This document shows, in pieces, positions 3-47,528 of a stretch of DNA of 64,000 nt; position 1 is the first letter of the stretch, and every line of letters starts with the position of its first letter. The notes beneath the pieces were generated by a model. The model saw nothing but the letters and a program-made list of their open reading frames with translations. It was not told the DNA's origin and ran no database searches. This stretch comes from an uncultured Victivallales bacterium (lineage in GTDB: Bacteria; Verrucomicrobiota; Kiritimatiellia; UBA8416), in assembly GCA_964472315.1 (NCBI GenBank), contig CAYYJS010000013.1, positions 229-64,228 of the forward strand. Reading direction: 5' to 3'. A program made the position numbers and the translations under genes.

Positions 3-290
3 CCCGCCGATGACACCGATTTGGACAACAACCCCGCGCTGGATACCGCGACCAGGGGAAAACTCAAGTGCCAGCGCAAGCGCCTGCGCCTCCTGTTTAC
101 TGATGACCATCTCAAGCAGCTCAAGCGCGTTAAGCTCATCGATGACATACTGGCCTGTACCGAACGTGTCTTGAACCCGGCAGCCCACGGCGGCAATCCT
201 CCTCTCTACGAAAGGGAAGTCGCCGACGCCCTTAGCCTGCTCCAGCAGCTCGATAGCTCGCTCATTTGCGCTGGGAGTAGCACGGCATGA
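3..290 (+). CDS. 3' portion of an unknown protein whose 5' end lies outside the window; its stop overlaps the ATG of the downstream ABC ATPase (ATGA)
   Basis: Open frame runs from the window edge to a stop at 288-290 (…NPAAHGGNPPLYEREVADALSLLQQLDSSLICAGSSTA*). The 4-nt ATGA overlap with the next gene suggests translational coupling. No family recognised. Confidence 0.35.
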   Translation, partial: PADDTDLDNNPALDTATRGKLKCQRKRLRLLFTDDHLKQLKRVKLIDDILACTERVLNPAAHGGNPPLYEREVADALSLLQQLDSSLICAGSSTA

Positions 291-3040: not shown

Positions 3041-3089
3041 TCGTGCCGCCCTGCATCCCGCTGGGGTGAATGCAACGCCGGGGCCTGTC
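3041..3089. repeat. 49-bp direct repeat, copy 1 (pairs with 7808-7856; one mismatch)
   Basis: tcgtgccgccctgcatcccgctggggtgaatgcaacgccggggcc[t/c]gtc is present at both positions. The two copies fall in different reading frames, so the repeat is not conserved as coding sequence. Confidence 0.8.
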
Positions 3090-5878: not shown

Positions 5879-6123
5879 TGTTCTCAGCCGCCATCTGCAA
5901 GAAGGGAAGTGCGCCGCCGGGGCATGTCCCTTGTCTGGCCCCAACGTCGTCGTGGAAAGAAGGGACAGGCCACGTGAGCGGGCGCGGGGCGTGCCGGGGG
6001 ATCCACGGGCGTCAAGGGCCATCAGGGCATGGTTTCGCCTATGGGTTGCGAACGGTGGTGATGCAAGGCGTTGATGAGCAGGATATTGCGGGGGCATCGG
6101 GGGGCATCGGGGTCAGCAGAATC

Positions 6124-6163
6124 GAGTATTGATGAAGTGGTTGACGCTGTCCGGCGTCATGGG
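6124..6163. repeat. 40-bp direct repeat, copy 1 (pairs with 19839-19878; 2 mismatches), with an internal 6-bp inverted repeat tgacgc-N6-gcgtca
   Basis: gagtattgat[g/a]aagtggtt[g/a]acgctgtccggcgtcatggg occurs at both sites. Weaker similarity extends about 25 bp upstream (…catcgg[g/a]gtca…). Confidence 0.75.
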
Positions 6164-6489
6164 GGTTCCACTCCACATGGACTCTGAGGATATTGATTGT
6201 CTATGGGGACAGTAAGCGGTCATGGAGGCGGCCAGGCCCCCGCAATCGAGGCCTGGATCCAGAAACACGGATGGCACGATACACTGCGAAGCCGCCTGAC
6301 CAAGGTCGGCTTTACGCCGCCTGAGTGTCAAAGGTTTCGCAACGCGCATCACGCGCCGGATGATGAATCAACCCACTTGCGTGAGAAGACGGAATGAGCG
6401 AAGCGAAGCACACGGTGGCACAGCATCTTTGACGCCGAACTTCCCGAGCGCAGGACAACGAAGGCCGTGCTGTCGAGACAATTGCACTC

Positions 6490-7836
6490 ATGGCCTACGG
6501 GTCGATCGTTTCCGTGCCCGGGCGGGAGATCGCCGACGCCGTCGACAGAGTCGTTGATAGGGATACGCCCTTCCCGGTCGAGTACGCCCGAAGCAGCAAA
6601 CGTCGAACCTGGGCTCCAACAGTCGTCGAGGTACCCGAGGGCTACGGCTCCCCAGTCAAAGCCAAGGTGTTTGTCCTCAAGGAGCACGTGACGGAGCAGC
6701 AGGCCCTCGACATGCTCTACAGGCGGGAGATCAACATGGTGGGCGATGCGACCGTGACTTACGACGATGCCCGGCAGAGGAAGAAACGGGACGGTGTCGT
6801 AATTGACAGCCGCAAGGGGTTGGGGGTTGGCAACGTCCTGTACACGACACTCCGGGCCAATATGCCGGAGATCCTCGACAACAGAATTTCCATCGAAGAC
6901 AAGGGACGCCTGTTGGCCGACAAAGCTCGCGCGAGCCTGACTGAAGAGGAATACCGCAGACGGCGGGACGGCATTCAGTATCTTGCAGATAACATCGACC
7001 AAGGAATCATTACTCCTCTGACCACCCCGTACTGTCAGGCAATCCTGTCTGCCATCCCCGGGTCTGGCAATCTGCGGTCAGCGAGGCTGAGGCTGGCGTC
7101 TGAGAGGCTGGGAGTCCGTATTGTCGCCGGCGTCGACGGCTGCAAGGCTGGCTGGTTCGCAGTCTGGGGCGACGGCGCCGAGAACTGGACGTTCGGCGTG
7201 TTTTCAGACTTCGCATCCCTTTGGCAGGAGCTCGCCTACGCCGACCTCATCGTTGTCGATATCCCGATCGGGCTGCCCTCCGATAGCCCCCGAACTTGCG
7301 ATCTGGTGGCGAGGAAGCTCCTGAGAAGGCCTCGGCACTCCAGCGTCTTCCCGGTGCCATGCAGGCAGGCCGTACACGCCTCTTCCGAGGACGAAGCCAA
7401 GGCCGCGAACAAGCGGATCATGGGCAAGAGCATTAGCAGGCAGTGCTTGGGAATCTGCAGCAAGATCGCCGAGGTCGATCGTTTGTTGCTGTCGGACACG
7501 GAGGCACGACAAACCATCAGGGAGGGGCATCCTGAGGTCTCCTTTTATGCCTTTGCAGGTAGTAGACCCATGGAGCACAAGAAATCGATTGCCGAGGGCG
7601 TTGGGGAAAGATTGGCAGTACTGCGTGAGAGATGGTCGAGCATTGACGACCTGTTCAAGAAGGCATCGAAGGAGTGTCGCCGCGGGCATATGGAAAATGA
7701 CGACGTCTTGGACGCGGCGGCCATGTACCTGACGGCGGCGGCGGAAGAGTCCAGGGCGATCCCAACAAAGCGGGAGAGGGATTCGGAGGGGCTGGCGATG
7801 GAAATGGTCGTGCCGCCCTGCATCCCGCTGGGGTGA
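6490..7836 (+). CDS. DUF429 (RNase H-like fold) domain protein with a ~200-aa uncharacterised N-terminal domain
   Basis: 448 aa. The C-terminal half has VAGVDGCKAGWFAVW…LIVVDIPIGLP…CDLVARKLL, typical of DUF429. I do not recognise the N-terminal half. The last codons overlap 49-bp repeat copy 2. Confidence 0.55.
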   Translation: MAYGSIVSVPGREIADAVDRVVDRDTPFPVEYARSSKRRTWAPTVVEVPEGYGSPVKAKVFVLKEHVTEQQALDMLYRREINMVGDATVTYDDARQRKKRDGVVIDSRKGLGVGNVLYTTLRANMPEILDNRISIEDKGRLLADKARASLTEEEYRRRRDGIQYLADNIDQGIITPLTTPYCQAILSAIPGSGNLRSARLRLASERLGVRIVAGVDGCKAGWFAVWGDGAENWTFGVFSDFASLWQELAYADLIVVDIPIGLPSDSPRTCDLVARKLLRRPRHSSVFPVPCRQAVHASSEDEAKAANKRIMGKSISRQCLGICSKIAEVDRLLLSDTEARQTIREGHPEVSFYAFAGSRPMEHKKSIAEGVGERLAVLRERWSSIDDLFKKASKECRRGHMENDDVLDAAAMYLTAAAEESRAIPTKRERDSEGLAMEMVVPPCIPLG

Positions 7837-7856
7837 ATGCAACGCCGGGGCCCGTC
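7808..7856. repeat. 49-bp direct repeat, copy 2
   Basis: See copy 1 at 3041-3089. Confidence 0.8.
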
Positions 7857-7913: not shown

Positions 7914-7967
7914 ACCAACATCAATGACAGAAGCGGGATCACTCCCGCGAAACGGGTGTGGGTGCGT

Positions 7968-9104
7968 ATGATCAAGTCTCTCAATCTTCCAGCTATCACT
8001 GACACGTTGCCACGTGTCGGCCTGAGTGCGGCTGATCTCGCCAGAGAACTCGGCGTCAGCCGGGAAGCAGTCTCGAAGTGGCTCAACGGGAAGTCCACGC
8101 CAAAGCCGGACAAACTGCTCCGGTTAGGCATGCTGCTCGGACTTTCGTTCGACGAATTGACGATACCGGAAGTCAAATCGGCCGTCCCCATTGTGTCATT
8201 CCGGCGTAAGGGTGGGCGCATCACCCGAGACCGTCATCTCGACAAGGCCCGAGATACCGGGGAACTCTTGAGACGTCTGGTGCGGCACCTACCGGAACAG
8301 GGCTTGGCGGCGCCTCCCGTCCTTAGAGATCCTCGGTGCGACTACGACTATGTCCAGAAAGCGGCGGCTGAAACACGACACGAAATGGGCATAAAAGACG
8401 CTGACATGATCGAATACGCCCAACTTATTCAGAAATTCGGTCGGCTCCATGCCATCATTGTCCCTGTACTATGGGGGGAGCGACAGTACCATGGCAACGC
8501 ACTCAACATTCACCTTCCTGATTGCGGGATCACATGGATCTACCTCAACCTGGACAGCAATGCGATCGACTTCAAATTCTGGATGGCGCACGAACTCGGC
8601 CACGCACTTGCCCCGAAGCTAAGCGGGGAAGAGGGCGAGGATTTCGCCGACATGTTTGCGCAGGCACTCCTGTACCCGGAGGCCGTTGCCGCGGAACTAC
8701 GCACTCAACTGGCACGCCGAACGAATGTCGGCCAGCGCATCAATGCTGTCAAGAGCACCGCAAGAGAGCGCCGTATTTCACCAGTCACAATCCGGTACGC
8801 GATCAAGGCCTACGAGGCAGCCCGAGGCCTGGCCCCCCTGGAGTTGGGAGCCGAGGCGTCTTTCATGGGTGCCGCGAGGAACGTCTCCAAGGAGTACGAA
8901 ACGGTAACCGAAACGCTGTTCACGGAGAATCCGCCATCGCCAGCAGACTATGCGGCCATTGGGCGGCGAACCTTCGATAGCCAGTTTTTTGAATCACTGG
9001 CTGCCTATTGCCGCAACGAGGACGGAGCGGAGCATTTCATCCACAGCGTTCTTGACCTGCCGTTAGCCGACGCAAAAGCCCTTGCGGCGGAGCTCGCAAG
9101 ATGA
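7968..9104 (+). CDS. XRE-family HTH fused to an ImmA/IrrE-family (COG2856) zinc metallopeptidase
   Basis: N-terminal HTH (LSAADLARELGVSREAVSKWLNGKSTP). C-terminal HEXXH motif (FWMAHELGHAL). The first ATG in frame is at 7968 (MIKSLNL); the ORF could also start at GTG 7956. Confidence 0.7.
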   Translation: MIKSLNLPAITDTLPRVGLSAADLARELGVSREAVSKWLNGKSTPKPDKLLRLGMLLGLSFDELTIPEVKSAVPIVSFRRKGGRITRDRHLDKARDTGELLRRLVRHLPEQGLAAPPVLRDPRCDYDYVQKAAAETRHEMGIKDADMIEYAQLIQKFGRLHAIIVPVLWGERQYHGNALNIHLPDCGITWIYLNLDSNAIDFKFWMAHELGHALAPKLSGEEGEDFADMFAQALLYPEAVAAELRTQLARRTNVGQRINAVKSTARERRISPVTIRYAIKAYEAARGLAPLELGAEASFMGAARNVSKEYETVTETLFTENPPSPADYAAIGRRTFDSQFFESLAAYCRNEDGAEHFIHSVLDLPLADAKALAAELAR

Positions 9105-9685
9105 GCGGTGGGCCGAAGGTCATCTTGCTCGACAGCAACGCCTATTTCCGCCTCGCTCAGTCCATTCGGCCTTTGCTCAAACCGCGGTATGGCCCACCGC
9201 CGTCGTATTCGCTTCTTGTCCTGAAGGAGCTCGATCAGGAATACCTTCGCAGTGCCCGCCTCCGAAGCAGATTCAACTGGTTCAGCGGCAGAGAATATGT
9301 CAGCGATCGCGAGAAGAACCGCTATACGGTGAGTGGTGCGGGCGCACGACTGGTCGATATCGCGTTCTCCTATCTGGCGAGGCAGGCCGATAGCGAGGGC
9401 CTGAATCTTGCTCGCGAGGACATCCAGGCGCTTGCTGTTGGCCACGCGCGTGGATTTCCTGTCGTCACGGATGACAGGGGCATGCAGAGGCTGGCCGGAA
9501 TATTCGGCATCGAGTGCTGGTCGACGTTGGCGCTCTTGAAGCACATGGTCGATCATGGGCGCATCGATTTCAACATCGTCCGCCAAGTAGTCGAGTATTG
9601 GCACGCAGAGCAGGACCTGCCTTGGCCTTTGAACGAACTTCGCCGGCGTTACAAGGAGTTCTTCTCGGAGGACTGTCCCATATAG
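9101..9685 (+). CDS. PIN-like domain protein (DUF4411-like), the usual partner of ImmA/IrrE-HTH proteins
   Basis: 194 aa. VILLDSNAYFRL at the N-terminus and PVVTDD resemble PIN acidic motifs. The ATGA overlap with the upstream peptidase gene suggests translational coupling. The ImmA-DUF4411 gene pairing is a known conserved neighbourhood. Confidence 0.5.
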   Translation: MSGGPKVILLDSNAYFRLAQSIRPLLKPRYGPPPSYSLLVLKELDQEYLRSARLRSRFNWFSGREYVSDREKNRYTVSGAGARLVDIAFSYLARQADSEGLNLAREDIQALAVGHARGFPVVTDDRGMQRLAGIFGIECWSTLALLKHMVDHGRIDFNIVRQVVEYWHAEQDLPWPLNELRRRYKEFFSEDCPI

Positions 9686-9720
9686 GCCCGCTCGATGCCG
9701 CTACACGGATACCTCACACC

Positions 9721-10524
9721 ATGAACGCACTTGAACGGGCATCGATTGCGAAAGCGGGGCGTGACCACGGGTGGGAGTGCGTGCTGCGCAACGGTGAGCA
9801 TGGCGTCATCCTGGGGTCATCCCGGCATGACGGCGAAGCCACGATCGAGGCGAGCACCCCGGCGGGAGCCTGGTCATGCCTGTTCAACAACGGCCTTGCC
9901 ATGGCGGAGCTGCGCCGTTCGTTCCCGGACGCCGCCCGCGCTGACGGCACATTCGTCCTCGGCGCCATGGGAGCGCTCACCGTCCTTCTCCGGCGTGCGG
10001 CGGAGTTGCACATGTCCCTGCCCAACGCGGCGGCCCGGCGATACGCGAAGTGCGTCAAAGAAGGGGAGCATGTCGAAGGAACGAACGATCTGGCATTCTC
10101 GCAGGTCGGCGATGTGGCCGAAGCCGTACGCCGAAAGACGCTGGTTTTCGACTGGCTGGTACAGAACGAAGACCGAATTCTTGGCGAGCGAGGTGGCAAC
10201 GTCAATGTCCTCTGGGTTGCCGGCGAGAACTCGGTGTTCGTGATCGATCACAATCTCGCATTCGACACGGCTTTCAATGTCGCTTCATGGAAGGCGCAGC
10301 ACGTGTTCCGCAATGATCTCGATGCATGGGATGCCGGGTTCGCCCTTGCATTGGAGCCGTTGCTGAAGGATACTCAGTTGCGGCTGGACGAGTACTGGGG
10401 AGAGTTGCCGGATGAATGGGTTGATGTGGCTTCGCTGCTCCCTGAGTTCTCGCTGGCAAGGCTGCACGCTGTGCTGGCACGATTTGCTGGAGCGAATAGC
10501 CTGTTTGGCATGGTGACAAAATGA
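9721..10524 (+). CDS. HipA-like (HipA_C / PI3K-PI4K-like) kinase-fold protein
   Basis: 267 aa. FDWLVQNEDRILGERGGNVNVLW parallels the HipA catalytic loop (VLIGNTDDHLKNF). VFVIDHNLAFD parallels the HipA activation/DFG-like motif. I see no N-terminal HipA domains. Confidence 0.4.
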   Translation: MNALERASIAKAGRDHGWECVLRNGEHGVILGSSRHDGEATIEASTPAGAWSCLFNNGLAMAELRRSFPDAARADGTFVLGAMGALTVLLRRAAELHMSLPNAAARRYAKCVKEGEHVEGTNDLAFSQVGDVAEAVRRKTLVFDWLVQNEDRILGERGGNVNVLWVAGENSVFVIDHNLAFDTAFNVASWKAQHVFRNDLDAWDAGFALALEPLLKDTQLRLDEYWGELPDEWVDVASLLPEFSLARLHAVLARFAGANSLFGMVTK

Positions 10525-11366
10525 AGAGCAACTACGCCTGCAATTTTGCGGTTGTGAGATTTCTGCCATACCCCGAGACGGATGAATTCGTCAATATCGG
10601 CATTGTCATGGCGTGCCCGCAAACGGGCATCTTCGACTTCAAGATCGACACTCGGCGTCGGGAGCGCATCACGGGATTCTTTCCTGAACTCGATGTTGAT
10701 ACACTCTTGGATGGTCGGAAGGCTTTCGTGCGCGAAGTGGCGCGTGTGAAGGCTGCATTCGACGGGCAAGCGACGCCGGATCAGCGAAGCTTCAACTTCA
10801 GCCAGCGGGAATGCGTCGATATATTCCGGAAACTGGTGAAGCCGCGTGAAAGCGTCTTTCGGTTCAGCGCCATCGGAACGGTGCTCACCATGGACCCGAA
10901 GCAGAAGCTGCAGGAGCTGTTCGCATACTACGTGGAGCGCCAATTCGCGCAGCGTGAGGAGTACCAGGAGACAGTCATGACTCGCCGGCTTGCGACTGTG
11001 TTCAAGGCGGAACACTTGATCGACCTGTACCACGAGCAGCGTTTCGGCGATGAACTATACCATGTGACGCTGCCGTTCGTTCACGAGGTGGACGACGCTG
11101 CGGTCAAGGCGATCAAACCCCTCGACCTCGACAAACATGATTCAACCCGGATCATTGAATATGGCGACAAATGGCAACGCCGTATCGAGCGCCTCCGTGG
11201 CATGGGGGACTTCCCCAAGCGGATTCTGTTTGTCGTGCGCCAGCCCGGAAGTGGCCGCAAGCGAGAGGCAGCGGAAAGCGTGCGTCGTGATCTTGAAGCC
11301 CTTCACGCCGAGACGCTCAACGAGCGCGATAAGGCTGAGGTGGTCGCATTCGCCCGGGCCGGATAG
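10521..11366 (+). CDS. DUF3037-like protein
   Basis: 281 aa. The N-terminus CNFAVVRFLPYPETDEFVNIGIVM matches my recollection of the DUF3037 consensus. Its ATGA overlaps the upstream kinase-like gene. Confidence 0.4.
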   Translation: MKSNYACNFAVVRFLPYPETDEFVNIGIVMACPQTGIFDFKIDTRRRERITGFFPELDVDTLLDGRKAFVREVARVKAAFDGQATPDQRSFNFSQRECVDIFRKLVKPRESVFRFSAIGTVLTMDPKQKLQELFAYYVERQFAQREEYQETVMTRRLATVFKAEHLIDLYHEQRFGDELYHVTLPFVHEVDDAAVKAIKPLDLDKHDSTRIIEYGDKWQRRIERLRGMGDFPKRILFVVRQPGSGRKREAAESVRRDLEALHAETLNERDKAEVVAFARAG

Positions 11367-11442
11367 CTTGCCTGGCGCTGGAAGAGGGGGGCGACAGACT
11401 CGTGAACCAAACGCGGGCTGTCAGAGCTGGCGATGACATTTG

Positions 11443-11537
11443 AGGGAGCCAAGGGCCAGGCCATCTGAGCGCGATGGGCCGGGGTGCATGTCCCCTCCCC
11501 GTAGCCTCCGTCGCCAGGCGGTGGACTCCCCACATGG
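11443..11537. repeat. 95-bp direct repeat, copy A (pairs with 17592-17686; one mismatch)
   Basis: agggagccaagggccaggccatctgagcgcgatgggccggggtgcatgtcccctccccgtagcctccgtcgccag[g/a]cggtggactccccacatgg is present at both positions. The pair brackets the helicase module. Confidence 0.85.
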
Positions 11538-11581
11538 TGGACGGAAATGTGCGGGAAACCTTGCTGGTCGGCCTTCATTGA

Positions 11582-14500
11582 ATGAGTGATACAGCCACAG
11601 ATCCCATTTCAGACTGCGTCCGGCTGGATCTGGAGACCAACCAGTCTGGGGGGATTCTCAAAATCGGTGCCGTCCGTGGCAATCGGACTTTCCTGCGTAC
11701 GGGCCGCTTTGACCAGAAGGCTGCGCTGGCTGAGCTGGATGGTCTGTGTCGGGGAGCATCTTGCGTGGTCGGCCATAATGTTGTGCTTCATGACTTGGAA
11801 GTCCTCAGGGAGCACAGCGCTTCGCTTTCGCTTCTGAGGCTGCCGGTAATCGATACGCTGTTCCTGTCGCCGATCTGCTTCCCGGAGAACCCATATCATC
11901 ACCTGGTCAAGGACTACAAACTAGTCTCGGACTCTGTGAACGATCCCGTCGCGGACGCACGGCTTTCCGGCGTCTTGCTCGCGGATGAGGTGCAGTCGCT
12001 GCGCGGAAGGGCCGAAGCGGCTCCCGATGTGTTCCGTTGCCTGCAGTTTCTGCTGTGCGCAGAAGGCGGCACCGACAACCTTCTGTCTGTGGGTATGCAG
12101 TTGGTGTTTGGCGCAGCCGGTGGAGGCGACTCGGTCACGACACAGCAAGGGCGCCCGTTGCTCACGTCAGTCCTAGGGGATCTGGCCTGTCGAACCGGCG
12201 CGGCATACCTGGCGGAAACCGACTTTGGCTCCGCGCAATCGCGTTGGGCACTGGCGTATGTGCTGTCGTGGCTGCGCGTCGCCGGCGCCGATTCCGTACT
12301 GCCGCCCTGGGTACGTCTGCACAACCCGCTGGTGAGCCCGATCCTTTCGCGACTGCGCGATGTCCCGTGTGACAGTCCCGAGTGCACGTACTGCCGTGCG
12401 ACTCACGATCCCGAGGCCCAACTGTCACGTTTTTTCGGATTCGACAGCTTCCGCCCCACTCCGCCGGATGCAAACGGCCAGAGTCTTCAGCGCGGCATTG
12501 TCTTGGCGGGCATGCGAAATGAGTCCGTGCTGGCCATCATGCCCACCGGCGGAGGGAAATCACTCTGCTTCCAGCTTCCCGCCCTGGTGCGCAACTTACG
12601 CAGAGGGCAGCTCACCATCGTCGTGTCTCCCCTGCAGGCGCTCATGAAGGATCAGGTCGATGGCCTTGTGCGCCGGACCCACATGCACAACGCAGCGGCG
12701 CTTTACGGGTTGCTGACTTCACCCGAACGAGGGGAGGTCCTGCGCGGCGTGCGAACCGGGAGCATTGCGCTCCTTTACGTTTCGCCAGAACAACTGCGCG
12801 GGAAGTCGTTCAGGAATGCCGTGCTTCAGCGAGAGATCGGCTGCTGGGTTCTGGATGAGGCGCACTGTCTGTCCAAATGGGGACACGACTTTCGTCCTGA
12901 CTACCTGTACGTAGGCCGGTTCATCCGCGAATTGGCGAAAGAGCAGGCAGGCGCCCTGCCGGCAATCGCCTGCTTCACGGCAACTGCGAAGCGGGATGTC
13001 ATCGACGAAATCGTCGAGTTCTTCCGCCGCGAGACCGGCACGGAACTGATTCGCTATGAAGGCGGCGTCGAGCGCGACAACCTGCATTTCGAGGTACAGA
13101 CTGTGGGTGCGCATGCGAAGTTGCCGCGGATGCATGATCTTCTGAGTGCCCGACTGCGGCCCGGCGGCCCTGGAAGCGCAGTCGTATTCCGTGCTACGCG
13201 AAAGGCTGCGGAGGAAACGGCGGAATTCCTCGTTACTAAGGGCTGGTCCGCGGCATGTTTTCATGCCGGACTGCTGGCGACCGACAAGAAGCGCATCCAG
13301 AATGACTTCCTGGCTGGCGAAATCCAGGTCATCTGTGCGACCAACGCTTTCGGGATGGGTATCGACAAGGATGACGTCAGGCTCGTCATCCACGGCGACA
13401 CGCCGGGATCGCTGGAGAACTACCTGCAGGAAGCCGGACGGGCCGGGCGAGACCGGAATCCCGCCGACTGCGTGCTCCTATACGACGAAGAGGATTGCGA
13501 GCAACAATTTCGCATGGGTGCTCACTCCGAGCTGAGCCGCCGCGATATCGCCCAGATCCTTCGCGGTCTCCGCAAGGCCGCCCGGTCGCGGAAAACCGAT
13601 GAAGTCGTCATCACAACCGGTGAGTTGCTGCGCGATGAAGACGTCGATACTGAATTTGGTCCCCAAGACAATTCAGCGGACACCAAGGTGCGGGCCGCCG
13701 TCTCATGGCTGGAGCGTGCAGGATTTGTCGAACGGAACGAGAACCGGACCAACGTCGTGCAGGCCCGACTGCTCGTCAAGAGTATCGACGAGGCCCGGGC
13801 GCAGTTGGCGAGGCTCAACTTGTCCGAACGGGAGGGCGGCCTGTGGTTAGCGATCATACGCGAGATGATGAACGCCTCCGAGATGGATACGCTATCCGTC
13901 GACGAGATTGCCCTGTTGCCCGAGTTCCAGTCCTACTTGGAGGAAGCCCGTTCCGGTGCGCCGGAGCGGCTGGTACGGGAAGGGCGCAGCCAGGAGTATC
14001 TGAGCGCGAAGGTGCTGAAAGTCCTCGACGCGATGATGGGTGTGGGCGTGCTCAAGAAGGATACGCTGCTGACAGCGTACGTGCGGTATAAGGTCGCGGA
14101 TCATTCTGGGATCAGACTGGACCGCGTGCTCGGCGTGGATCGCGAGTTCCTCAAGCTGCTGTCCGAGGAAGAGCCAGATCCGGAGGGGTGGCTCTCGCTC
14201 AACCTCCGTCTCGTGAACGACGAACTGTTGTCGCGAGGGGTTGACTGCTCGCCGGAAATGCTGCGACAGCTCCTGCGGAGCCTGAGCGAGGATGGTCGAG
14301 GGTTCGCGGGCCAAACGGGCAGCATTGACTGCCGCTACGTGGGGCGTGACGCCTACCGCGTCAGGGTTCGAAGGGAATGGCGACAAGCTGAGGCGCTGGC
14401 CGAAGTGAGGAGGAGAGTGGCAACCAAGATCCTGGAAGCCCTCTTGGACACAGTCCCGCCGAATACACCGCCTAAGGGCGACCTCTTGGTTGAGTTCGCG

Positions 14501-16804
14501 TTCGAGACGCTCCGGTCGGCGTTGGAGAGTGACCTGACCCTTCGCTCCGATATTCGTGACATGCAGGCGGCCATCGAGCGCGGGTTGATGTTTCTACATG
14601 AGCAGAGCGTCATCATCCTTCAAAAGGGGCTGGCGATATTCCGCTCTGCCATGACCGTCCGCGTTCTGCCCGAAGGTGACCGCCAACGGTATACGGCAGA
14701 ACACTACGACGCGCTGCAGCACCACTACCGTGAGCGTGTGTTTCAGGTGCATGTGATGAACGAGTACGCCCGTTACGGACTGCAGAAGATCCGCGCAGCT
14801 CTCGAGTTGGTCGTCGCATACTTCACGATGGACAAGGAGTCGTTCATCCGACGGTTCTTCAGTGACAGCGGGGAACTGCTGGAGAGAGCCACGACGGCGC
14901 GGTCCTACCGCGCGATCGTAGACAGCCTGGGAAACCGCGATCAGATCCGCATTGTGACCCAGCCGACTCAGAAAAACATCCTGATCCTGGCCGGACCAGG
15001 CTCAGGGAAGACCCGAACCGTCGTGCACCGGTGTGCGTACCTGTTGCGCGTTAAGCGCGTACGTCCCCGGGCCGTCTTGGTCTGCTGCTTCAACCACAAG
15101 GCCGTCCTGGAGTTGCGCCGACGCCTGGCCGCTTTGGTTGGCAAGGACGCCATCGGGGTTACGATTCAGACCTACCACGGCCTGGCCCTTCGCATCCTCG
15201 GCCTGTCCTGCCGCGGACTGGAGGACAGGAACGGGACCACGCCCGATTTCGACCAGCTCATATCCGACGCTGTACGCGTCCTGCGTGGAGAGTCCGGAGT
15301 GCCGGGTGTCGAGCCGGACGACGTTCGTGACCGCCTGTTGGCCGGCTTTGAGCACATTCTCGTGGACGAGTACCAGGACATCGATGAGCCCCAGTACGAG
15401 ATGATCAGCGCCATAGCCGGCCGTACCCTCAAGGACGGGGAGCGCAAACTGTCCATTCTGGCTGTCGGCGACGACGACCAGAGCATCTACGGTTTTCGGG
15501 GCGCCAACGTGGAATTCATCCGTCGCTTCAAGACGGACTACGAGGCGGATGTTGCCTTCCTGATCGAGAACTACCGTTCCACGCGCCATATCATTGAGGC
15601 GGCCAACCGCTTGATCGGGCGCAATCATGACCGCATGAAGGTGGACAAGGAGATCCGAATCGACCAGGGACGTGGCTTACTCCCGCCGGGCGGGGTGTTC
15701 GGCCAGAAGGACGCCCTTACGCGCGGCCGCGTCACGCTCGTCGAGGTCGGGGACGCTTCGGTGCAGGCGTCAGCCGTCGTGCGCGAGATCAAGCGGCTGC
15801 GCGCCTTGGGCGCAACCCGCTGGGAGGACATCGCCGTCCTCTCGCGCACACGGCGAGACCTTGCCCTGGTGCGCGCCGCAGCGGAAGCCGATGGCATTCC
15901 CGTTTCGTGGCCGCTGGACCGCGGCAAGATACCTCCGCTGAGCCGCATCCGTGAGGTATGGAACGTCCTGTCCGAACTGGCCTCTATTCGCGGCGAATCC
16001 ACCACGGCTTCGGACCTGCTTGTTCGGTTTGGGCTTTCGGACGACTCACCGCCAGCAAATCCCTGGCGGGTGCTCATCCAGGACTGCCTGCATGCGTGGG
16101 CCGACGAGACACTGGACGAAAGACTTCCTGTCGCCACCGCTCTCGAGGGGCTTTACGAGGCGCTGGCCCAGCGACGGCGCGACGAACAGTTCGGCTGCGG
16201 CGTAGTCCTGAACACAGTCCATGCGGCCAAAGGCACGGAATACGAGCATGTCCTGCTCTGCGGCGATTGGTCGGGCGCGCGAGGGGCGGACATTGAGGAG
16301 GAACGCCGTGTTCTTTACGTCGGCATGACCCGTGCCCGCCACACCTTAGCTGTTTTCAACAGGATGGACCGCCGCAATCCCTTTGCCGACGAACTCACCG
16401 GGCCGTGTTTCACCTACCGCCGCGAGTCTGCCGGCCCAGCCGGACGCGACCACGATGCATCGGATTATGTCCTGCTCGGCATGGAAGATATCTTCCTGGA
16501 CTTCGCCGGCCAGCAGCCCGCCGGCCACCCCGTACACACTGCGCTGGCGGGGCTTCAGCCCGGCGACAAACTGGCAGTGTCCCGTAACGGCGCGCGGCCC
16601 GCGTTGCTGAACGCGGACGGGCAGATGCTTGCTCGGTTCTCTGCCAAGGCCGCTGATACGTGGAAGGATCGTCTCGACACGATTCGTGACGTTCAAGTCA
16701 TCTGCAACGTTATTCGACAGCGCACCGACTGCAAAGAGAGCGAATACCAAGACCGGCTCAAAGCGGACAGATGGGAGATCCCGATCTGCGAGATCCGGAT
16801 GTAG
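11582..16804 (+). CDS. Tri-domain protein: N-terminal DnaQ-like DEDDh 3'-5' exonuclease, RecQ-family helicase and UvrD/PcrA-family helicase
   Basis: 1740 aa.
- Exonuclease: RLDLETNQ…VVGHNVVLHDLEVL matches exonuclease motifs I and III.
- RecQ: MPTGGGKSLCFQLPAL and LDEAHCLSKWGHDFRPDY are RecQ signatures.
- UvrD: ILILAGPGSGKTRTVVHR (Walker A), VDEYQDIDEPQYEMI (motif II) and YVGMTRAR (motif VI).
The last ~150 aa are unassigned. Confidence 0.7.
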   Translation: MSDTATDPISDCVRLDLETNQSGGILKIGAVRGNRTFLRTGRFDQKAALAELDGLCRGASCVVGHNVVLHDLEVLREHSASLSLLRLPVIDTLFLSPICFPENPYHHLVKDYKLVSDSVNDPVADARLSGVLLADEVQSLRGRAEAAPDVFRCLQFLLCAEGGTDNLLSVGMQLVFGAAGGGDSVTTQQGRPLLTSVLGDLACRTGAAYLAETDFGSAQSRWALAYVLSWLRVAGADSVLPPWVRLHNPLVSPILSRLRDVPCDSPECTYCRATHDPEAQLSRFFGFDSFRPTPPDANGQSLQRGIVLAGMRNESVLAIMPTGGGKSLCFQLPALVRNLRRGQLTIVVSPLQALMKDQVDGLVRRTHMHNAAALYGLLTSPERGEVLRGVRTGSIALLYVSPEQLRGKSFRNAVLQREIGCWVLDEAHCLSKWGHDFRPDYLYVGRFIRELAKEQAGALPAIACFTATAKRDVIDEIVEFFRRETGTELIRYEGGVERDNLHFEVQTVGAHAKLPRMHDLLSARLRPGGPGSAVVFRATRKAAEETAEFLVTKGWSAACFHAGLLATDKKRIQNDFLAGEIQVICATNAFGMGIDKDDVRLVIHGDTPGSLENYLQEAGRAGRDRNPADCVLLYDEEDCEQQFRMGAHSELSRRDIAQILRGLRKAARSRKTDEVVITTGELLRDEDVDTEFGPQDNSADTKVRAAVSWLERAGFVERNENRTNVVQARLLVKSIDEARAQLARLNLSEREGGLWLAIIREMMNASEMDTLSVDEIALLPEFQSYLEEARSGAPERLVREGRSQEYLSAKVLKVLDAMMGVGVLKKDTLLTAYVRYKVADHSGIRLDRVLGVDREFLKLLSEEEPDPEGWLSLNLRLVNDELLSRGVDCSPEMLRQLLRSLSEDGRGFAGQTGSIDCRYVGRDAYRVRVRREWRQAEALAEVRRRVATKILEALLDTVPPNTPPKGDLLVEFAFETLRSALESDLTLRSDIRDMQAAIERGLMFLHEQSVIILQKGLAIFRSAMTVRVLPEGDRQRYTAEHYDALQHHYRERVFQVHVMNEYARYGLQKIRAALELVVAYFTMDKESFIRRFFSDSGELLERATTARSYRAIVDSLGNRDQIRIVTQPTQKNILILAGPGSGKTRTVVHRCAYLLRVKRVRPRAVLVCCFNHKAVLELRRRLAALVGKDAIGVTIQTYHGLALRILGLSCRGLEDRNGTTPDFDQLISDAVRVLRGESGVPGVEPDDVRDRLLAGFEHILVDEYQDIDEPQYEMISAIAGRTLKDGERKLSILAVGDDDQSIYGFRGANVEFIRRFKTDYEADVAFLIENYRSTRHIIEAANRLIGRNHDRMKVDKEIRIDQGRGLLPPGGVFGQKDALTRGRVTLVEVGDASVQASAVVREIKRLRALGATRWEDIAVLSRTRRDLALVRAAAEADGIPVSWPLDRGKIPPLSRIREVWNVLSELASIRGESTTASDLLVRFGLSDDSPPANPWRVLIQDCLHAWADETLDERLPVATALEGLYEALAQRRRDEQFGCGVVLNTVHAAKGTEYEHVLLCGDWSGARGADIEEERRVLYVGMTRARHTLAVFNRMDRRNPFADELTGPCFTYRRESAGPAGRDHDASDYVLLGMEDIFLDFAGQQPAGHPVHTALAGLQPGDKLAVSRNGARPALLNADGQMLARFSAKAADTWKDRLDTIRDVQVICNVIRQRTDCKESEYQDRLKADRWEIPICEIRM

Positions 16805-16859
16805 CATCCTTGTTCGGCCAGGAATCGAAAGCTCCACATGAAGAACACACGAAGCGAAA

Positions 16860-17258
16860 ATGCAACCAGCGCGTAGAGATGAGATACGGCGTTTTCTCGT
16901 CACGGGCGAGCATGATGCGGCGCATAGGGTTTGGCCCGGACGCCACGTTTTTGAGCGGGTCCATGCGGGGGATGCTGCGCTGCGGGCCGCCCTGGCCGAC
17001 GCCGTGCGCCAGCGGACAAAGGGGCTGACATTTCCTTCCCTGCCACCCGACTTCGATGCCGGCCAGTTTGTGCTCGGCAAGGTCCGTCCCATGGTATGCG
17101 GGCTCTTTCCGGCAAGGGAGCGACAGGTCATGCTCGACCTGTTCGAAAAAGCCCTGGTGTTCGTGTCCGGGGACAACATCGAGCAACTCGTTTCAGAGAC
17201 GGAAATGCTGTCCACAGCCCGCCAGATGAGGGAGCATACCCGATGGGAGTGCGAGTGA
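16860..17258 (+). CDS. Hypothetical protein downstream of the helicase
   Basis: 132-aa ORF, 56 nt after the helicase stop, same strand. No recognised domain. Confidence 0.35.
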   Translation: MQPARRDEIRRFLVTGEHDAAHRVWPGRHVFERVHAGDAALRAALADAVRQRTKGLTFPSLPPDFDAGQFVLGKVRPMVCGLFPARERQVMLDLFEKALVFVSGDNIEQLVSETEMLSTARQMREHTRWECE

Positions 17259-17572
17259 CGATGGATCGGGCAAACAGTGAAATGAGCGCCAACCTGCTCG
17301 ATAACGTGAGCGCCCTGGTCGACCAGATGCAGGGCTTGGCGCGTCAGGCTCACGCCGAATACAGCCCCGAGGTGGATGCGCTGATTGCCACGCGCACCCG
17401 CGACACCCGACGGATCGAACGCCTGCTCGATGGCATCCTCGATTTCGGCTTCGATGACGCCATGACCCAGCTCTTCAAACGCCTCTGCCGCTACTACTAC
17501 ACCCTCGATCCCACCGCCACCGTCGATTACGTCCACACCTACCGCGAGATGTGGGACAGCGACGGATCATAG
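17243..17572 (+). CDS. Hypothetical protein (second small ORF of the helicase module)
   Basis: About 109-aa ORF (MGVRVTMDRANSEMSANLL…). It overlaps the previous ORF's end by 16 nt; an alternative start is MDRAN at 17261. It ends 20 nt before 95-bp repeat copy B. Confidence 0.3.
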   Translation: MGVRVTMDRANSEMSANLLDNVSALVDQMQGLARQAHAEYSPEVDALIATRTRDTRRIERLLDGILDFGFDDAMTQLFKRLCRYYYTLDPTATVDYVHTYREMWDSDGS

Positions 17573-17591
17573 GTTCCGCCGTCCACAACAT

Positions 17592-17686
17592 AGGGAGCCA
17601 AGGGCCAGGCCATCTGAGCGCGATGGGCCGGGGTGCATGTCCCCTCCCCGTAGCCTCCGTCGCCAGACGGTGGACTCCCCACATGG
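17592..17686. repeat. 95-bp direct repeat, copy B
   Basis: See copy A at 11443-11537. Confidence 0.85.
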
Positions 17687-17925
17687 CCTGTCCCTTGACG
17701 GCCTTATTCGACAAACCGATTTTGACCATCACTGACTTTGTCGAACGCACGGGTATTCAGCGGCGCAGCGCTGAACAGATCATGGAGGCCCTCCTGAACA
17801 GGAGGATTCTCGGAATCCAGGAGAGAGAAGCCGGCAGCAGGCCGGCCGTTCTGGCTTTCAGACGCTTGGTAGCCATTACGCAGCGCAAGGAGTTTTCAGC
17901 CAAGTGACAGAGCCCGGCGTTGGTG

Positions 17926-18046
17926 TTCGCACGACACCCATGACGTGCGGCAGAGTTTGTGCGACACCGGTGACGCACAAACGGGATTGTGCGACATGAA
18001 TGTCGCTCAAAAAGCGTTGAGCGACACGGCTGACGCACAAGGTTTG
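17926..18046. repeat. Tandem array of four 30-bp degenerate units, each carrying a short hairpin (gcgaca-N4-tgtcgc type)
   Basis: Units begin near 17927, 17957, 17987 and 18017. The consensus is ttg[t/a]GCGACA-nnnn-TG[A/T]CGC-[a/t]caa-n6. There are no spacers between units. The array ends 15 bp before the abiEii stop codon. Confidence 0.6.
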
Positions 18047-18060
18047 TTGAGGGAAAGGGG

Positions 18061-19083
18061 CTACTTTCTGTTGATGGCGAGTTCCGCCTCGAGCAACGTG
18101 GCGATGATGGCATCAAAGTCGGGTGGCGGCGACAGGAACATGGGTTCCATGGCGGCGTAGTCGCGGCGCAGCTCGGGGAGACGGGCGGCGGGGGGCACGA
18201 GGCGCAGTGTACCGGGAACGGCTGTTTCGAAGTGGGCCCAGCTTGAGGCGAAGAAGCGGCTCTTGTGAATGCGGACGCGTTCCAGCAGATCGAGGGAGTC
18301 GGCGGCGGCGCGACCACCGGGGTGTCTCCAGAGCGCGGCGAAGTCGGCGTAGTGGCGGGCGAACCGATCGCGGAGCGGCTGGTTGGCCGGCCGGTGGTAT
18401 TCGGCATGCAGGATGGTGGCCTTTTCCCAGAACGTGCGCTCGATTTCAAGGGCCACGACCTCGGCATGGAAGTCGTCAAACGCATCGGGCGCCAGCTCGG
18501 CGACAAAGGGCGTGATCACATGTGTGCCGGTGGGACGCTGGTCCGTCAGCGATCCGAACTCCATCTTGACGAGGGGCGGAATGTAGGAGCCGGGCGCGAC
18601 CGCTCGCGGATAGGGAAACAGGATCACCGGAGATTGAGATACAGCGTCGAGCTCGAAGCTCAACCAGTGGCCTGTTTCGGGATGGGTGCCCAGGGCGGAG
18701 GTGACGACGGCTTCCAACTCGGGCGTGAAGCGGGCGTTCACCGCGCCAGCGCAATCGGCCTGGAGTTCCTTGTTGCGCTTCAGGCGTTGCGAATTGGAGG
18801 GGGCGTCGTCCAGGTCGGCTTCCTTCCAACCGAGCGAGGCGGGCGTGAGTCCGAGGTCGATGTCCTCGGAAAAGCGGTCGATGGCGCCAAAGACCTTTGA
18901 GAGTGACGTGCCGCCCTTGAAAACGCATTCCGCTCCGAGCTGGGGCGTGGCGAAAATGTGGCCGAGCAACCAGCAGACCCAGAAGTCCTTCTCGACGATA
19001 AACTCCGGCACGCCGGTACGGTTGGCATGGTTCCGCCAGTAGAGGGCGCGCTCTTCGGACGGGAGTAAGGCAAAGGATTTCAC
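18061..19083 (-). CDS. AbiEii/AbiGii-family nucleotidyltransferase toxin (DUF1814), type IV toxin-antitoxin system
   Basis: 340 aa with FKGGTSLSKVFGAIDRFSEDIDLGL, the DUF1814 nucleotidyltransferase motif. Its start overlaps the upstream abiEi-like gene by 4 nt. Confidence 0.75.
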   Translation of the reverse strand: MKSFALLPSEERALYWRNHANRTGVPEFIVEKDFWVCWLLGHIFATPQLGAECVFKGGTSLSKVFGAIDRFSEDIDLGLTPASLGWKEADLDDAPSNSQRLKRNKELQADCAGAVNARFTPELEAVVTSALGTHPETGHWLSFELDAVSQSPVILFPYPRAVAPGSYIPPLVKMEFGSLTDQRPTGTHVITPFVAELAPDAFDDFHAEVVALEIERTFWEKATILHAEYHRPANQPLRDRFARHYADFAALWRHPGGRAAADSLDLLERVRIHKSRFFASSWAHFETAVPGTLRLVPPAARLPELRRDYAAMEPMFLSPPPDFDAIIATLLEAELAINRK

Positions 19084-19709
19084 GGGGTGCCCTCCTCCCG
19101 GCCGATCGCCCTGAAGTAGGAGTGCATCCAGGCCGGGGCGAGCGTGATGTCGGCAAGCAACTGGCGGCGATCATCAAGAGAAAGCAGCTTGTGCAGGTGC
19201 GCCACCCTGTCGGGCGTGATGTTTGCTTTGCCGACATAGCGCAGCGCCGCGATGACGAGACCAGTCATCCTGCCGGAGGCGGCCATCATGCGTGGCGAGG
19301 CCTGGCGCAGTTCGATGGTCTGGTTCCCGTAGCGCAGCTTGCGTGGTTTTCCGTCGGTCAGGAAGACCACGCGGGCCGGGACCTGCTCAGAAAGACGCAA
19401 GAGGTTGGCCGCATAGCCGCCAAACGGTTGAAGCTTTACGTGATCGCGGTCAGCCAGCGCTTTGGCTACGGCCTCCACGGGTGGCAGAATATCTCCCAGG
19501 ACGGGGTGTGTCTTGGGCTGGTAGTACAGCCCCCGGGCGAGTCGCCGCAGGAAGCCGGACGCCACCAGGCGGGACAACGCCTTGTCAACCGCTGTGCGCG
19601 TATCCAAGTCGAGAAAACGCCCCGCATGGAACACCGTATCGGGGCCAGTCTTTTCGACCCGCCAGCGGATGCGGTCCGCCGTACTGTCGTGTGTCTTGGG
19701 CCTAGCCAT
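19080..19709 (-). CDS. AbiEi-family antitoxin/transcriptional regulator (type IV toxin-antitoxin system)
   Basis: About 209 aa, directly upstream of and overlapping abiEii. Its size and the positively charged C-terminal domain are consistent with AbiEi. ATG at 19709 (MARPKTHD…); the ORF could extend to TTG at 19748. Confidence 0.6.
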   Translation of the reverse strand: MARPKTHDSTADRIRWRVEKTGPDTVFHAGRFLDLDTRTAVDKALSRLVASGFLRRLARGLYYQPKTHPVLGDILPPVEAVAKALADRDHVKLQPFGGYAANLLRLSEQVPARVVFLTDGKPRKLRYGNQTIELRQASPRMMAASGRMTGLVIAALRYVGKANITPDRVAHLHKLLSLDDRRQLLADITLAPAWMHSYFRAIGREEGTP

Positions 19710-19711
19710 TA

Positions 19712-19741
19712 CGTCAGATAATGTGTCCGCTTTTTCTGACG
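19712..19741 (-). promoter_or_regulatory. Inverted repeat cgtcaga-N16-tctgacg abutting the abiEi start; candidate AbiEi autoregulatory operator
   Basis: Perfect 7-bp arms at 19712-19718 and 19735-19741, 2 nt upstream of the ATG at 19709, or inside the coding region if TTG 19748 is the start. AbiEi antitoxins are known to bind inverted repeats in their own promoters. Confidence 0.4.
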
Positions 19742-19838
19742 ATATCAACTCAGAAATGCGGCAAATTACAGGGCCCTTACAGTGGGCAATGGGGTCAACC
19801 CTTGGGGCGATGTTGGCGGGACATCGGAGTCATCCCTT

Positions 19839-19878
19839 GAGTATTGATAAAGTGGTTAACGCTGTCCGGCGTCATGGG
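19839..19878. repeat. 40-bp direct repeat, copy 2
   Basis: See copy 1 at 6124-6163. It lies about 130 bp upstream of abiEi. Confidence 0.75.
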
Positions 19879-20287
19879 CTATTTCTCGTGGCGTCATGGC
19901 CAGGAAACTTCGCGTGCCGTTCGTGGCAATCCCTTCGACTACCTCACCACGCTCCGCCGTCACATCCGCCGCGTTCGCGACGATCCCGCCGCCTGGATGC
20001 CCTGGAACCTGGCTGCCGTGCACCGAAGAAACACGGCCACACACGCTTACCGAAGGGACACGGGGGCGCGCCAGAACACCACCCATTCGGCGTTCTCCGC
20101 GTGCCTCGCCTCCCCCGCAGCAGCACTCGAAGCCCCCTCATCTTCCAAAAGAATCAGTCATGCCTCCGAGGATGGGAAAAGCTTGGCGTGTGACATTGCC
20201 CCGCCATTGCCTTTAGTTTGATACGAAATACATTGGCGCCCTATTCGTCTTGGCGCGTTCCACACCTTCTGGTACATTTTCAGTGCG

Positions 20288-47454: not shown

Positions 47455-47528
47455 TGGTTGCCCGACTAGGACTCGAACCTAGACTCTAGCCTCCAAAGGG
47501 CCGTGTGCTGCCATTACACCATCGGGCA
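47455..47528 (-). tRNA. tRNA-Gln (anticodon TTG), CCA encoded
   Basis: Minus-strand sequence TGCCCGA-TG-GTGTAATGGCAGCACA-CGGCC-CTTTGGA-GGCTA-GAGT-CTAGG-TTCGAGT-CCTAG-TCGGGCA-A-CCA. Acceptor stem 7 bp, T-arm with TTCGAGT loop, anticodon loop CU-UUG-GA. It sits between ispE and prs, a conserved position for tRNA-Gln. Confidence 0.7.

Follow-up and report, generated by a model that had tools for sequence, protein, structure and literature searches.

A 95-nucleotide direct repeat around an exonuclease-RecQ-UvrD helicase gene, most likely a recombination scar in a mosaic defence island

DNA segments bounded by repeated sequences are known from several settings. In Campbell-type integration, a circle with one homologous segment, such as a suicide plasmid, is inserted by a single crossover; in integrons, cassettes are separated by attC sites; and in the tandem accretion of integrative or cis-mobilisable elements, attL-element-attR blocks occur without an integrase. 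The P2/P4 hotspots (PMC9122126) and the core defence hotspots of Pseudomonas (PMC10250203) are reported to be defined by conserved flanking genes and to exchange their content by double crossover. Here, we describe a 64,000-nucleotide (nt) stretch of DNA from an uncultured Victivallales bacterium (contig CAYYJS010000013.1, hereafter the window), in which two direct copies of a 95-nt sequence bracket the gene for a helicase of 1740 amino acids (aa) and two small open reading frames (ORF2 and ORF3). The repeat pair is most likely a recombination scar from the entry of this exonuclease-RecQ-UvrD block into a mosaic defence island, and the scar is a further example of an already known kind of structure.

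The left and right copies (DR-L and DR-R; Table 1) lie on the same strand with their starts 6149 nt apart and differ by one mismatch (G11518 versus A17667), being 99% identical. Allowing up to three mismatches, exactly two matches to the 95-mer were found in the window and none in 100 dinucleotide shuffles, and neither blastn (blastn-short) nor nhmmer detected a diverged third copy in it. The pair is real and recent. The initial annotation had described two copies with one mismatch bracketing the 1740-aa gene and two small ORFs, which was confirmed by the search and the shuffle test; the positions of the gaps it gave as 45 and 20 bp also held, their exact lengths being corrected to 44 nt from DR-L to the helicase start codon (ATG at 11582) and 19 nt from the ORF3 stop codon (17572) to DR-R. 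Global alignments of the 20 to 80 nt beside each copy, on both sides, scored within the shuffle range; the flanks of the two copies are thus unrelated and the repeat edges sharp. Homologous flanks at lower identity were considered and rejected, as only a 40-nt in-frame patch turned up. This patch of 13 codons (11626-11665 versus 17777-17817) lies about 90 nt downstream of both copies, with a z-score of 3.7 over 150 nt, and the similarity, between the Exo I motif region of the helicase and a winged helix-turn-helix (wHTH) ORF to the right of DR-R, is probably due to chance.

The closest relative of the helicase locus, L085 (83% aa identity), defines where the inserted DNA begins. When positions 11000-18000 of the window were compared with all loci by blastn, similarity to L085 extended from 11539 to the helicase stop codon (16804). 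The homology boundary falls at 11539-11541, i.e., 1 to 3 nt past the end of DR-L (11537), and the region upstream is unrelated. Neither L085 nor any other helicase locus compared (80 metagenome loci, L085/L086, and plasmid loci) contains the 95-mer. The repeat is therefore target-side sequence rather than helicase cargo and ends, on its right, in a recombination joint; the insert (X, 11538-17591) is of foreign origin, at any rate in its left part. Two other assignments were rejected: the repeat as a conserved flank of the helicase, since it is missing from all of these loci, and the repeat as the tail of the PDC-M66 cassette on its left, since relatives of the DUF3037 gene (70-72% DNA identity) lose homology within the gene.

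A second asymmetry is found at the right copy, where DR-R and the adjoining flank together form a hairpin element of about 99 nt. Its 15-nt inverted arms are complementary at 14 of 15 positions; the left arm, CAAGGGCCAGGCCAT, corresponds to repeat positions 8-22, and the right arm, ATGG followed by CCTGTCCCTTG, comprises the last 4 nt of DR-R and the first 11 nt of its flank. DR-R with its flanks folds with z-scores of -2.7 to -2.9, whether as RNA or DNA and on either strand (1-3 of 200 shuffles were as stable), whereas DR-L with its flanks (z of +0.1 to +0.7) and the 95-mer alone (z of -0.2 to -0.5) fold no better than shuffles. For 15 nt matching with one mismatch, blastn gives an E-value of about 1 over the whole window, which by a hand estimate puts the chance of such an inverted arm directly beside a copy at about 1e-3. 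Because the hairpin is continuous across DR-R and its right flank and not across DR-L, 17592-17697 can be read as native, uninterrupted sequence. DR-L, as judged from its letters, reads as a truncated version of this sequence that breaks off 4 nt into the right arm, at the start of the helicase DNA.

The hairpin raises the possibility of a low-copy dispersed repeat resembling a miniature inverted-repeat transposable element (MITE) or a repetitive extragenic palindromic (REP) sequence, with two copies in the island whose neighbours were shuffled by homologous recombination. The 99-nt element with its 15-nt inverted termini and significantly stable fold would suit such a repeat, as would the fact that each copy has different neighbours on both sides, and other helicase loci often contain small palindromic repeats between genes. 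However, the duplicated 95 nt and the hairpin are out of register: the repeat begins 7 nt outside the left arm and ends 11 nt short of the end of the right arm, which means that the hairpin element was not duplicated as a whole. The inverted arms occur at DR-R only, no short duplication flanks either copy, and there is no target-site duplication. The 64 kb contain only two copies, both within the island, and the 42 kb of core DNA have none. The initial annotation had proposed a search for further copies and would have taken a common dispersed element as evidence against its reading. No match was found in about 95 related loci, in plasmids or in phages, and two segments of the repeat had none in viral contigs, where an 18-mer gave three chance matches with unrelated flanks; a 21-mer scan of 185,579 genomes, a collection that does not contain the source genome, returned a single 23-nt coincidence in an Actinomycetota metagenome-assembled genome (L084), again with unrelated flanks. 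Where searched, no further copy turned up, and we regard this explanation as unlikely.

We favour, at an even chance, the reading that the 95-mer is a native intergenic target sequence that was duplicated on entry of the helicase segment, either by a single crossover with a circle (Campbell type) or by an equivalent event. A native hairpin element of about 99 nt would have lain between the PDC-M66 operon and a Fic remnant, and a foreign segment consisting of leader, exonuclease-RecQ-UvrD gene, ORF2 and ORF3 (11538-17591) would have entered there. It would have arrived on a circle that also carried one 95-nt copy, for example one released from a sister or related island whose helicase already stood beside the 95 nt. 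Such a circle may have formed by illegitimate excision, in which case the joint between repeat and X would be the original insertion point, matching the L085 boundary, and the joint between X and repeat (...CAACAT/AGGGAGC...) would close the circle. Homologous recombination of the circle with the resident 95 nt would then produce the repeat-insert-repeat arrangement. Homologous recombination can act over 95 nt without a dedicated enzyme, and the missing integrase therefore poses no problem. A plain insertion would break the continuity between the repeat and the right flank, and a later copy of the repeat would not restore it exactly, which makes circle integration the simplest single event, although any equivalent target-duplicating event fits as well. 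RecA recombination between the two copies would delete the 6149-bp unit as a non-replicating circle and leave a solo repeat.

The locus shares with Campbell-type products an insert between two direct copies of an exactly shared segment, sharp edges and reversibility; the DNA between the direct copies has a separate origin, and native continuity is preserved at one junction. It differs in that no replicon, vector or circular form is seen and the homology measures only 95 nt, the origin of the circle being something we infer. Target duplication upon entry is further supported by locus-specific repeat-X-repeat arrangements at other helicase loci (L036, L043, L066, L004, and L010) and by two further repeat pairs (A and B) and the GmrSD and Fic fragments in the low-GC island. 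Several points weigh against it. No empty site, solo-repeat genotype or circle junction was seen, and the flanks are unrelated in the nearest relatives, whose identity is 72-83%. The model presupposes that the helicase segment had come to lie beside the 95 nt at an earlier stage, and further copies of the 95-mer may exist elsewhere in the source genome. A graph with k=31 cannot by itself separate the integrated form from an empty site plus a 6.15-kb circle. In addition, the insert ends share a 7-nt inverted repeat, TGGACGG (11538-11544) and CCGTCCA (17582-17588, 6 nt from the right end), for which the model has no explanation. By a rough estimate, the chance of such 7-nt inverted ends is about 0.01-0.05; a related GACGG is also present after the hairpin (17697-17701). 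If target duplication is the correct reading, the locus would be a dated example of a single defence gene joining an island without a dedicated mobile element, and the gene could be lost again at a measurable frequency via the 95-nt repeats, giving strain-level heterogeneity in phage resistance. This helps to read the mosaics of defence islands in metagenome-assembled genomes and leaves current understanding unchanged; the large, uncharacterised exonuclease-RecQ-UvrD family and the frequency of repeat-cassette-repeat structures are more promising leads.

An independent short-read assembly (Logan SRR12261224, k=31) allowed the structure to be compared with a second source. Exact-protein look-ups of the helicase, DUF3037, AbiEii and ORF3 led to one Logan sample group only, and the 74-aa wHTH ORF at DR-R had no record. 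The same proteins are found in this assembly on three contigs, which end inside both copies at the positions predicted from the repeat and its mismatch; such breaks would be expected of a true repeat longer than k=31. As an exception, contig L003 stops 14 nt into DR-R (window position 17673) and not at the position set by the mismatch (17637), which implies an extra branch in the graph, due to either a variant or a third junction. An assembly artefact, in which a free 6.15-kb circle and an empty chromosomal site sharing the 95-mer were joined in one contig, would yield the same unitigs at k=31 as the integrated form, and the branch at L003 is left unexplained. On the other hand, ordinary reads, like the largest k of common assemblers, exceed 95 nt, so that spanning reads would normally resolve such a repeat, the bracketed block is without a replication gene according to the profile scans, and short contigs of helicase homologues show no circular overlaps. 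We consider such an artefact highly improbable.

The initial annotation had named three usual meanings of such repeats, namely a recent site-specific integration through attL and attR, a duplication by a replicative element and a hotspot for cassette exchange, while observing no tRNA-like features and no integrase in the unit. Both observations hold. ARAGORN and Rfam found no tRNA or tmRNA at the repeat, the only one being a tRNA-Gln at 47455-47528, and the repeat core overlaps no tRNA, tmRNA or conserved gene end. ORFs from window positions 1-28 kb, chosen by length and third-position G+C, were submitted to Pfam, PADLOC, PHROGs and NCBIfam, and no recombinase or transposase was found among them. 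What stands of the interpretation is a recent recombination that placed the block; its site-specificity does not, as no recombinase was found between the repeats or in the 22 kb of visible island, no tRNA or gene end serves as a target, and L085 lacks the 95-mer. The attL and attR sites could still belong to a non-autonomous (cis-mobilisable) element moved in trans by a recombinase encoded elsewhere. This would agree with the sharp-edged direct repeats, with a right edge that serves as the joint to two different sequences, and with a left end of the island, a possible place for an integrase, that falls outside the window, upstream of position 1; the 74-aa ORF also has a faint match to a Cox-like excisionase HTH (E 0.006). 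Against it, that ORF matches a Fic C-terminal wHTH more strongly, neither a visible recombinase nor a tRNA or gene-end target is present, the cargo is not conserved as a unit, and the left copy has no hairpin arm, so the two sites are not equivalent. We therefore hold a trans-mobilised element to be distinctly unlikely. The locus does resemble tandem accretion in that direct repeats delimit a recombinase-free block in an island; it departs from it in having three repeat pairs with three different sequences, two of them interleaving, and neither a tRNA-derived core nor a visible integrase. Duplication by a replicative element, also proposed initially, finds no support in the profile scans, which detected no transposase within 11538-17591. 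A transposon with a target-site duplication fits no better: a transposase is missing, and the insert ends share only the 7-nt inverted repeat. To our knowledge, 95 nt is also far above the length of any known target-site duplication.

Both copies stand directly 5' of a same-strand ORF and end in ATGG, which suggests a further possibility, namely a duplicated 5' regulatory region whose promoter, operator or 5' untranslated region drives the helicase gene and the 74-aa wHTH gene. The ATG is the annotated start of the 74-aa protein, and at the end of DR-L (11534) it opens a 15-codon upstream ORF (11534-11584), whose TGA abuts the helicase ATG (TGAATG). A 69-nt repeat at L004, L089 and L090 likewise precedes two adjacent defence operons, one of them the helicase. 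However, a sigma-70 scan of the 95-mer gave no promoter-like site, nor was a sigma-54-type site found by eye; alignment with L085 shows that the start of the upstream ORF is not kept there; the near identity of the copies amid unrelated flanks points to recent copying and not to selection; and pair A, the first of the island's other repeat pairs, copies the 3' end of a gene rather than a promoter. A regulatory duplication would moreover account for a possible present role of the copies and not for their origin, and has in our view a slim chance. A non-coding RNA, for which the initial annotation had suggested a fold check, was rejected: Rfam searches of both copies, at the gathering score and at E<=10, gave nothing beyond noise, and the fold of the 95-mer is not above that of shuffles. 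The repeat was also rejected as Fic coding sequence, as Fic similarity begins 9 nt past the repeat, which itself shows no likeness to Fic when translated in frame. A protein search with a 118-aa ORF returned only itself.

Integron cassettes offer another comparison. As in integrons, same-strand cassettes are split by sites of about 100 nt, one of which (DR-R and its flank) is an imperfect hairpin, and the cargo is phage defence. Unlike attC, the 95-mer contains neither GTT nor AAC and hence no RYYYAAC/GTTRRRY core sites, intI is missing, the left copy does not form a hairpin (z of about 0 versus about -2.8 at DR-R), and the cassette is 6 kb long with three ORFs. It could be speculated that defence cassettes in Planctomycetes-Verrucomicrobia-Chlamydiae (PVC)-type islands move as circles that enter hairpin sites of about 100 nt and duplicate them, similarly to integrons but without IntI or an attC consensus and with an unrecognised recombinase or none. 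The hairpin at the native site, a joint lying 4 nt inside its right arm and the 7-nt inverted insert ends would be in line with this, as would the repeat-X-repeat arrangements around defence cassettes in unrelated loci (L004, L010, L036, L043, and L066); we nonetheless see it as a long shot with a very slim chance.

The repeats at these other loci differ in sequence and length. At L004, L089 and L090, a 69-nt repeat (93%; 6314-6382 and 9845-9913 in L004), ending in a sigma-70-like TTGCAC-17-TATCAA, lies upstream of a pair of genes for 279-aa and 756-aa (weak UvrD) proteins and again upstream of the helicase, with an identical layout in the three assemblies. The repeats measure 70 nt (89%) at L010 and 76 nt (100%) at L066, and a 54-nt repeat brackets a small ORF and the helicase at L043. 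At L036, the 3' end of a 409-aa gene (1104-1384) is repeated at 7600-7835, just after the helicase, with 77-83% identity, and brackets a 323-aa gene and the helicase, an arrangement that looks like an older scar of this type. Among 21 direct-repeat pairs of related loci, 8 have a copy no more than 250 nt from the helicase, whereas uniform placement would predict 1.8. A hand estimate gives about 5 adjacent pairs if repeats are only intergenic, and bracketing was observed for 4 pairs versus 2.4 expected. A specific tie of repeats to this helicase family was therefore rejected, 8 of 21 being unconvincing against about 5. Circular 6-kb helicase elements, suggested by many contigs of about 6 kb, were likewise rejected; none of these contigs has terminal overlaps, and their sizes are thus a sampling effect. 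The nearest relatives of the DUF3037 gene (72-75%) have unrelated DNA downstream.

The term helicase-nuclease, used in the initial annotation for the product of the 1740-aa gene, proved apt. Pfam recognises only RecQ-type superfamily 2 (SF2) domains at about residues 300-680 and UvrD-type superfamily 1 (SF1) domains at about 1118-1600; the RecQ-family SF2 core, at about residues 280-650, matches PDB profiles of RecQ, RECQ5, BLM and WRN at 1e-57 to 1e-78, and the UvrD/PcrA SF1 core lies at about residues 1115-1600. A nuclease is supported by the N-terminal 130 aa or so, where D16/E18, H65/N66/H70/D71 and D125 are invariant in 34 homologues, and by an AlphaFold model (predicted local distance difference test score of 86), whose best structural matches are the DEDD 3'-5' exonuclease domains of Pol II, Staphylococcus aureus DinG, DnaQ, Cap18 and oligoribonucleases, with weak E-values (1.5e-3 at best); a sequence profile of the N terminus had no significant match in the PDB. 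The domain order resembles that of WRN with an extra SF1 motor. PADLOC gave only partial matches, to DpdF, PsyrT and GajB. The family comprises at least 7978 proteins and occurs as a solo gene in defence contexts, with restriction-modification (RM), AbiE, GmrSD, toxin-antitoxin and CRISPR genes as neighbours, and the protein is a candidate single-gene defence system. The three-gene unit of the initial annotation did not survive this comparison: at L085 the helicase is a solo gene, with a toxin-antitoxin pair on one side and a convergent inositol phosphatase gene on the other, on the plasmids pALVIN01 and pTfr153 it is a lone gene beside type I RM and CRISPR genes, and tblastn of ORF2 and ORF3 against the 80 metagenome helicase loci returned only the Logan copy of the same locus. 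Over about 85 helicase loci in total, neither small ORF accompanies the gene.

The repeat-bounded block sits in a region, from position 1 to about 22,300, with a G+C content near 0.60 versus 0.66 for the rest of the window. This region is a defence island with heavy cassette turnover (Table 1), after which core genes begin at panD. Homologues carrying the names Kiritimatiellia, Lentisphaeria and Verrucomicrobiota would suit a host from the PVC group. In common with the hotspots described for P2/P4 (PMC9122126) and Pseudomonas (PMC10250203), unrelated defence systems lie side by side in a compositionally distinct region beside core genes; the trace here is instead a short duplicated target segment. 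The 74-aa ORF is either a gene remnant or a stand-alone wHTH.

Table 1. Repeats, genes and other features of the island part of the window
Feature	Coordinates	Strand	Remarks
AAA_13 ATPase	287-2599		Island gene
GmrSD N-terminal fragment, 63 aa	2663-2854		Pfam E 6e-6
Pair A, copy 1	3041..3089	+	49 nt, 98% to 7808-7856; last 9 codons + 21 nt of DUF429 gene, just after GmrSD fragment
GmrSD+DUF4268	3236-5878		Island gene
Pair B, copy 1	6101..6163	+	63 nt, 84% to 19818-19878
DUF429	6490-7836		Island gene
Pair A, copy 2	7808..7856	+	True 3' end of DUF429 gene (6490-7836)
HTH_3/M78 regulator	7956-9104		Island gene
HipA_2 kinase + DUF3037	9514..11366	+	PADLOC candidate PDC-M66; left neighbour; DUF3037 ends 76 nt before DR-L
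DR-L, left copy of 95-nt direct repeat	11443..11537	+	Ends ...CACATGG, helicase-derived DNA directly after
Helicase leader	11538..11581	+	Last 41-43 nt ~93% identical to L085 leader vs 79% for ORF
1740-aa protein	11582..16804	+	N-terminal DEDD-type 3'-5' exonuclease, RecQ-family SF2 and UvrD-family SF1 helicase; Pfam, PDB profiles, alignment, AlphaFold
ORF2, 132 aa	16860..17258	+	No Pfam, PADLOC, PHROGs or NCBIfam match
ORF3, 109 aa	17243..17572	+	Start as called on Logan contig (alternative 17261); no Pfam, PADLOC, PHROGs or NCBIfam match
DR-R, right copy of 95-nt direct repeat	17592..17686	+	A at 17667 instead of G; runs into right flank as hairpin element
Hairpin element, ~99 nt	17599..17697	.	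Arms 17599-17613 (CAAGGGCCAGGCCAT) and 17683-17697 (ATGG followed by CCTGTCCCTTG)
74-aa ORF from ATG inside DR-R	17683..17907	+	Fic-family C-terminal winged helix, SoFic positions 299-360 of 361; annotated in NCBI record
AbiEii/AbiEi	18061-19748	-	Island genes
Pair B, copy 2	19818..19878	+	Adjoins putative transposase C-terminal fragment

A self-comparison of the window yielded only three repeat pairs besides the 95-mer, two of them in the island. The copies of pair A bracket the intact GmrSD and DUF429 genes. Pair B appears, from its sequence, to consist of coding remnants. Pairs A and B interleave (3041 < 6101 < 7808 < 19818) and are thus not simple nested insertions, which rules out nested target-site duplications. 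All three pairs, including the 95-mer, are confined to the island, and the 42 kb of core DNA contain none of them, a distribution that speaks for local rearrangement and against repeat families spread over the genome. The remaining pair (61264-61610 and 62044-62378) is a 65%-identical stretch in adjacent ORFs of the core region. Next to the second copy of pair B, at about 19880-20020, the stretch ...GNPFDYLTTLRRHIRRVRDDPAAWMPWNL resembles the C terminus of IS66-family transposases and is a putative fragment of such a gene. Finally, three 24-nt palindromic units (TTGTGCGACA-N4-TGTCGCACAA) are arrayed with a 30-nt spacing at window positions 17957-18040, between the stop codons of the 74-aa wHTH ORF and AbiEii, an odd spot for an operator-like array.

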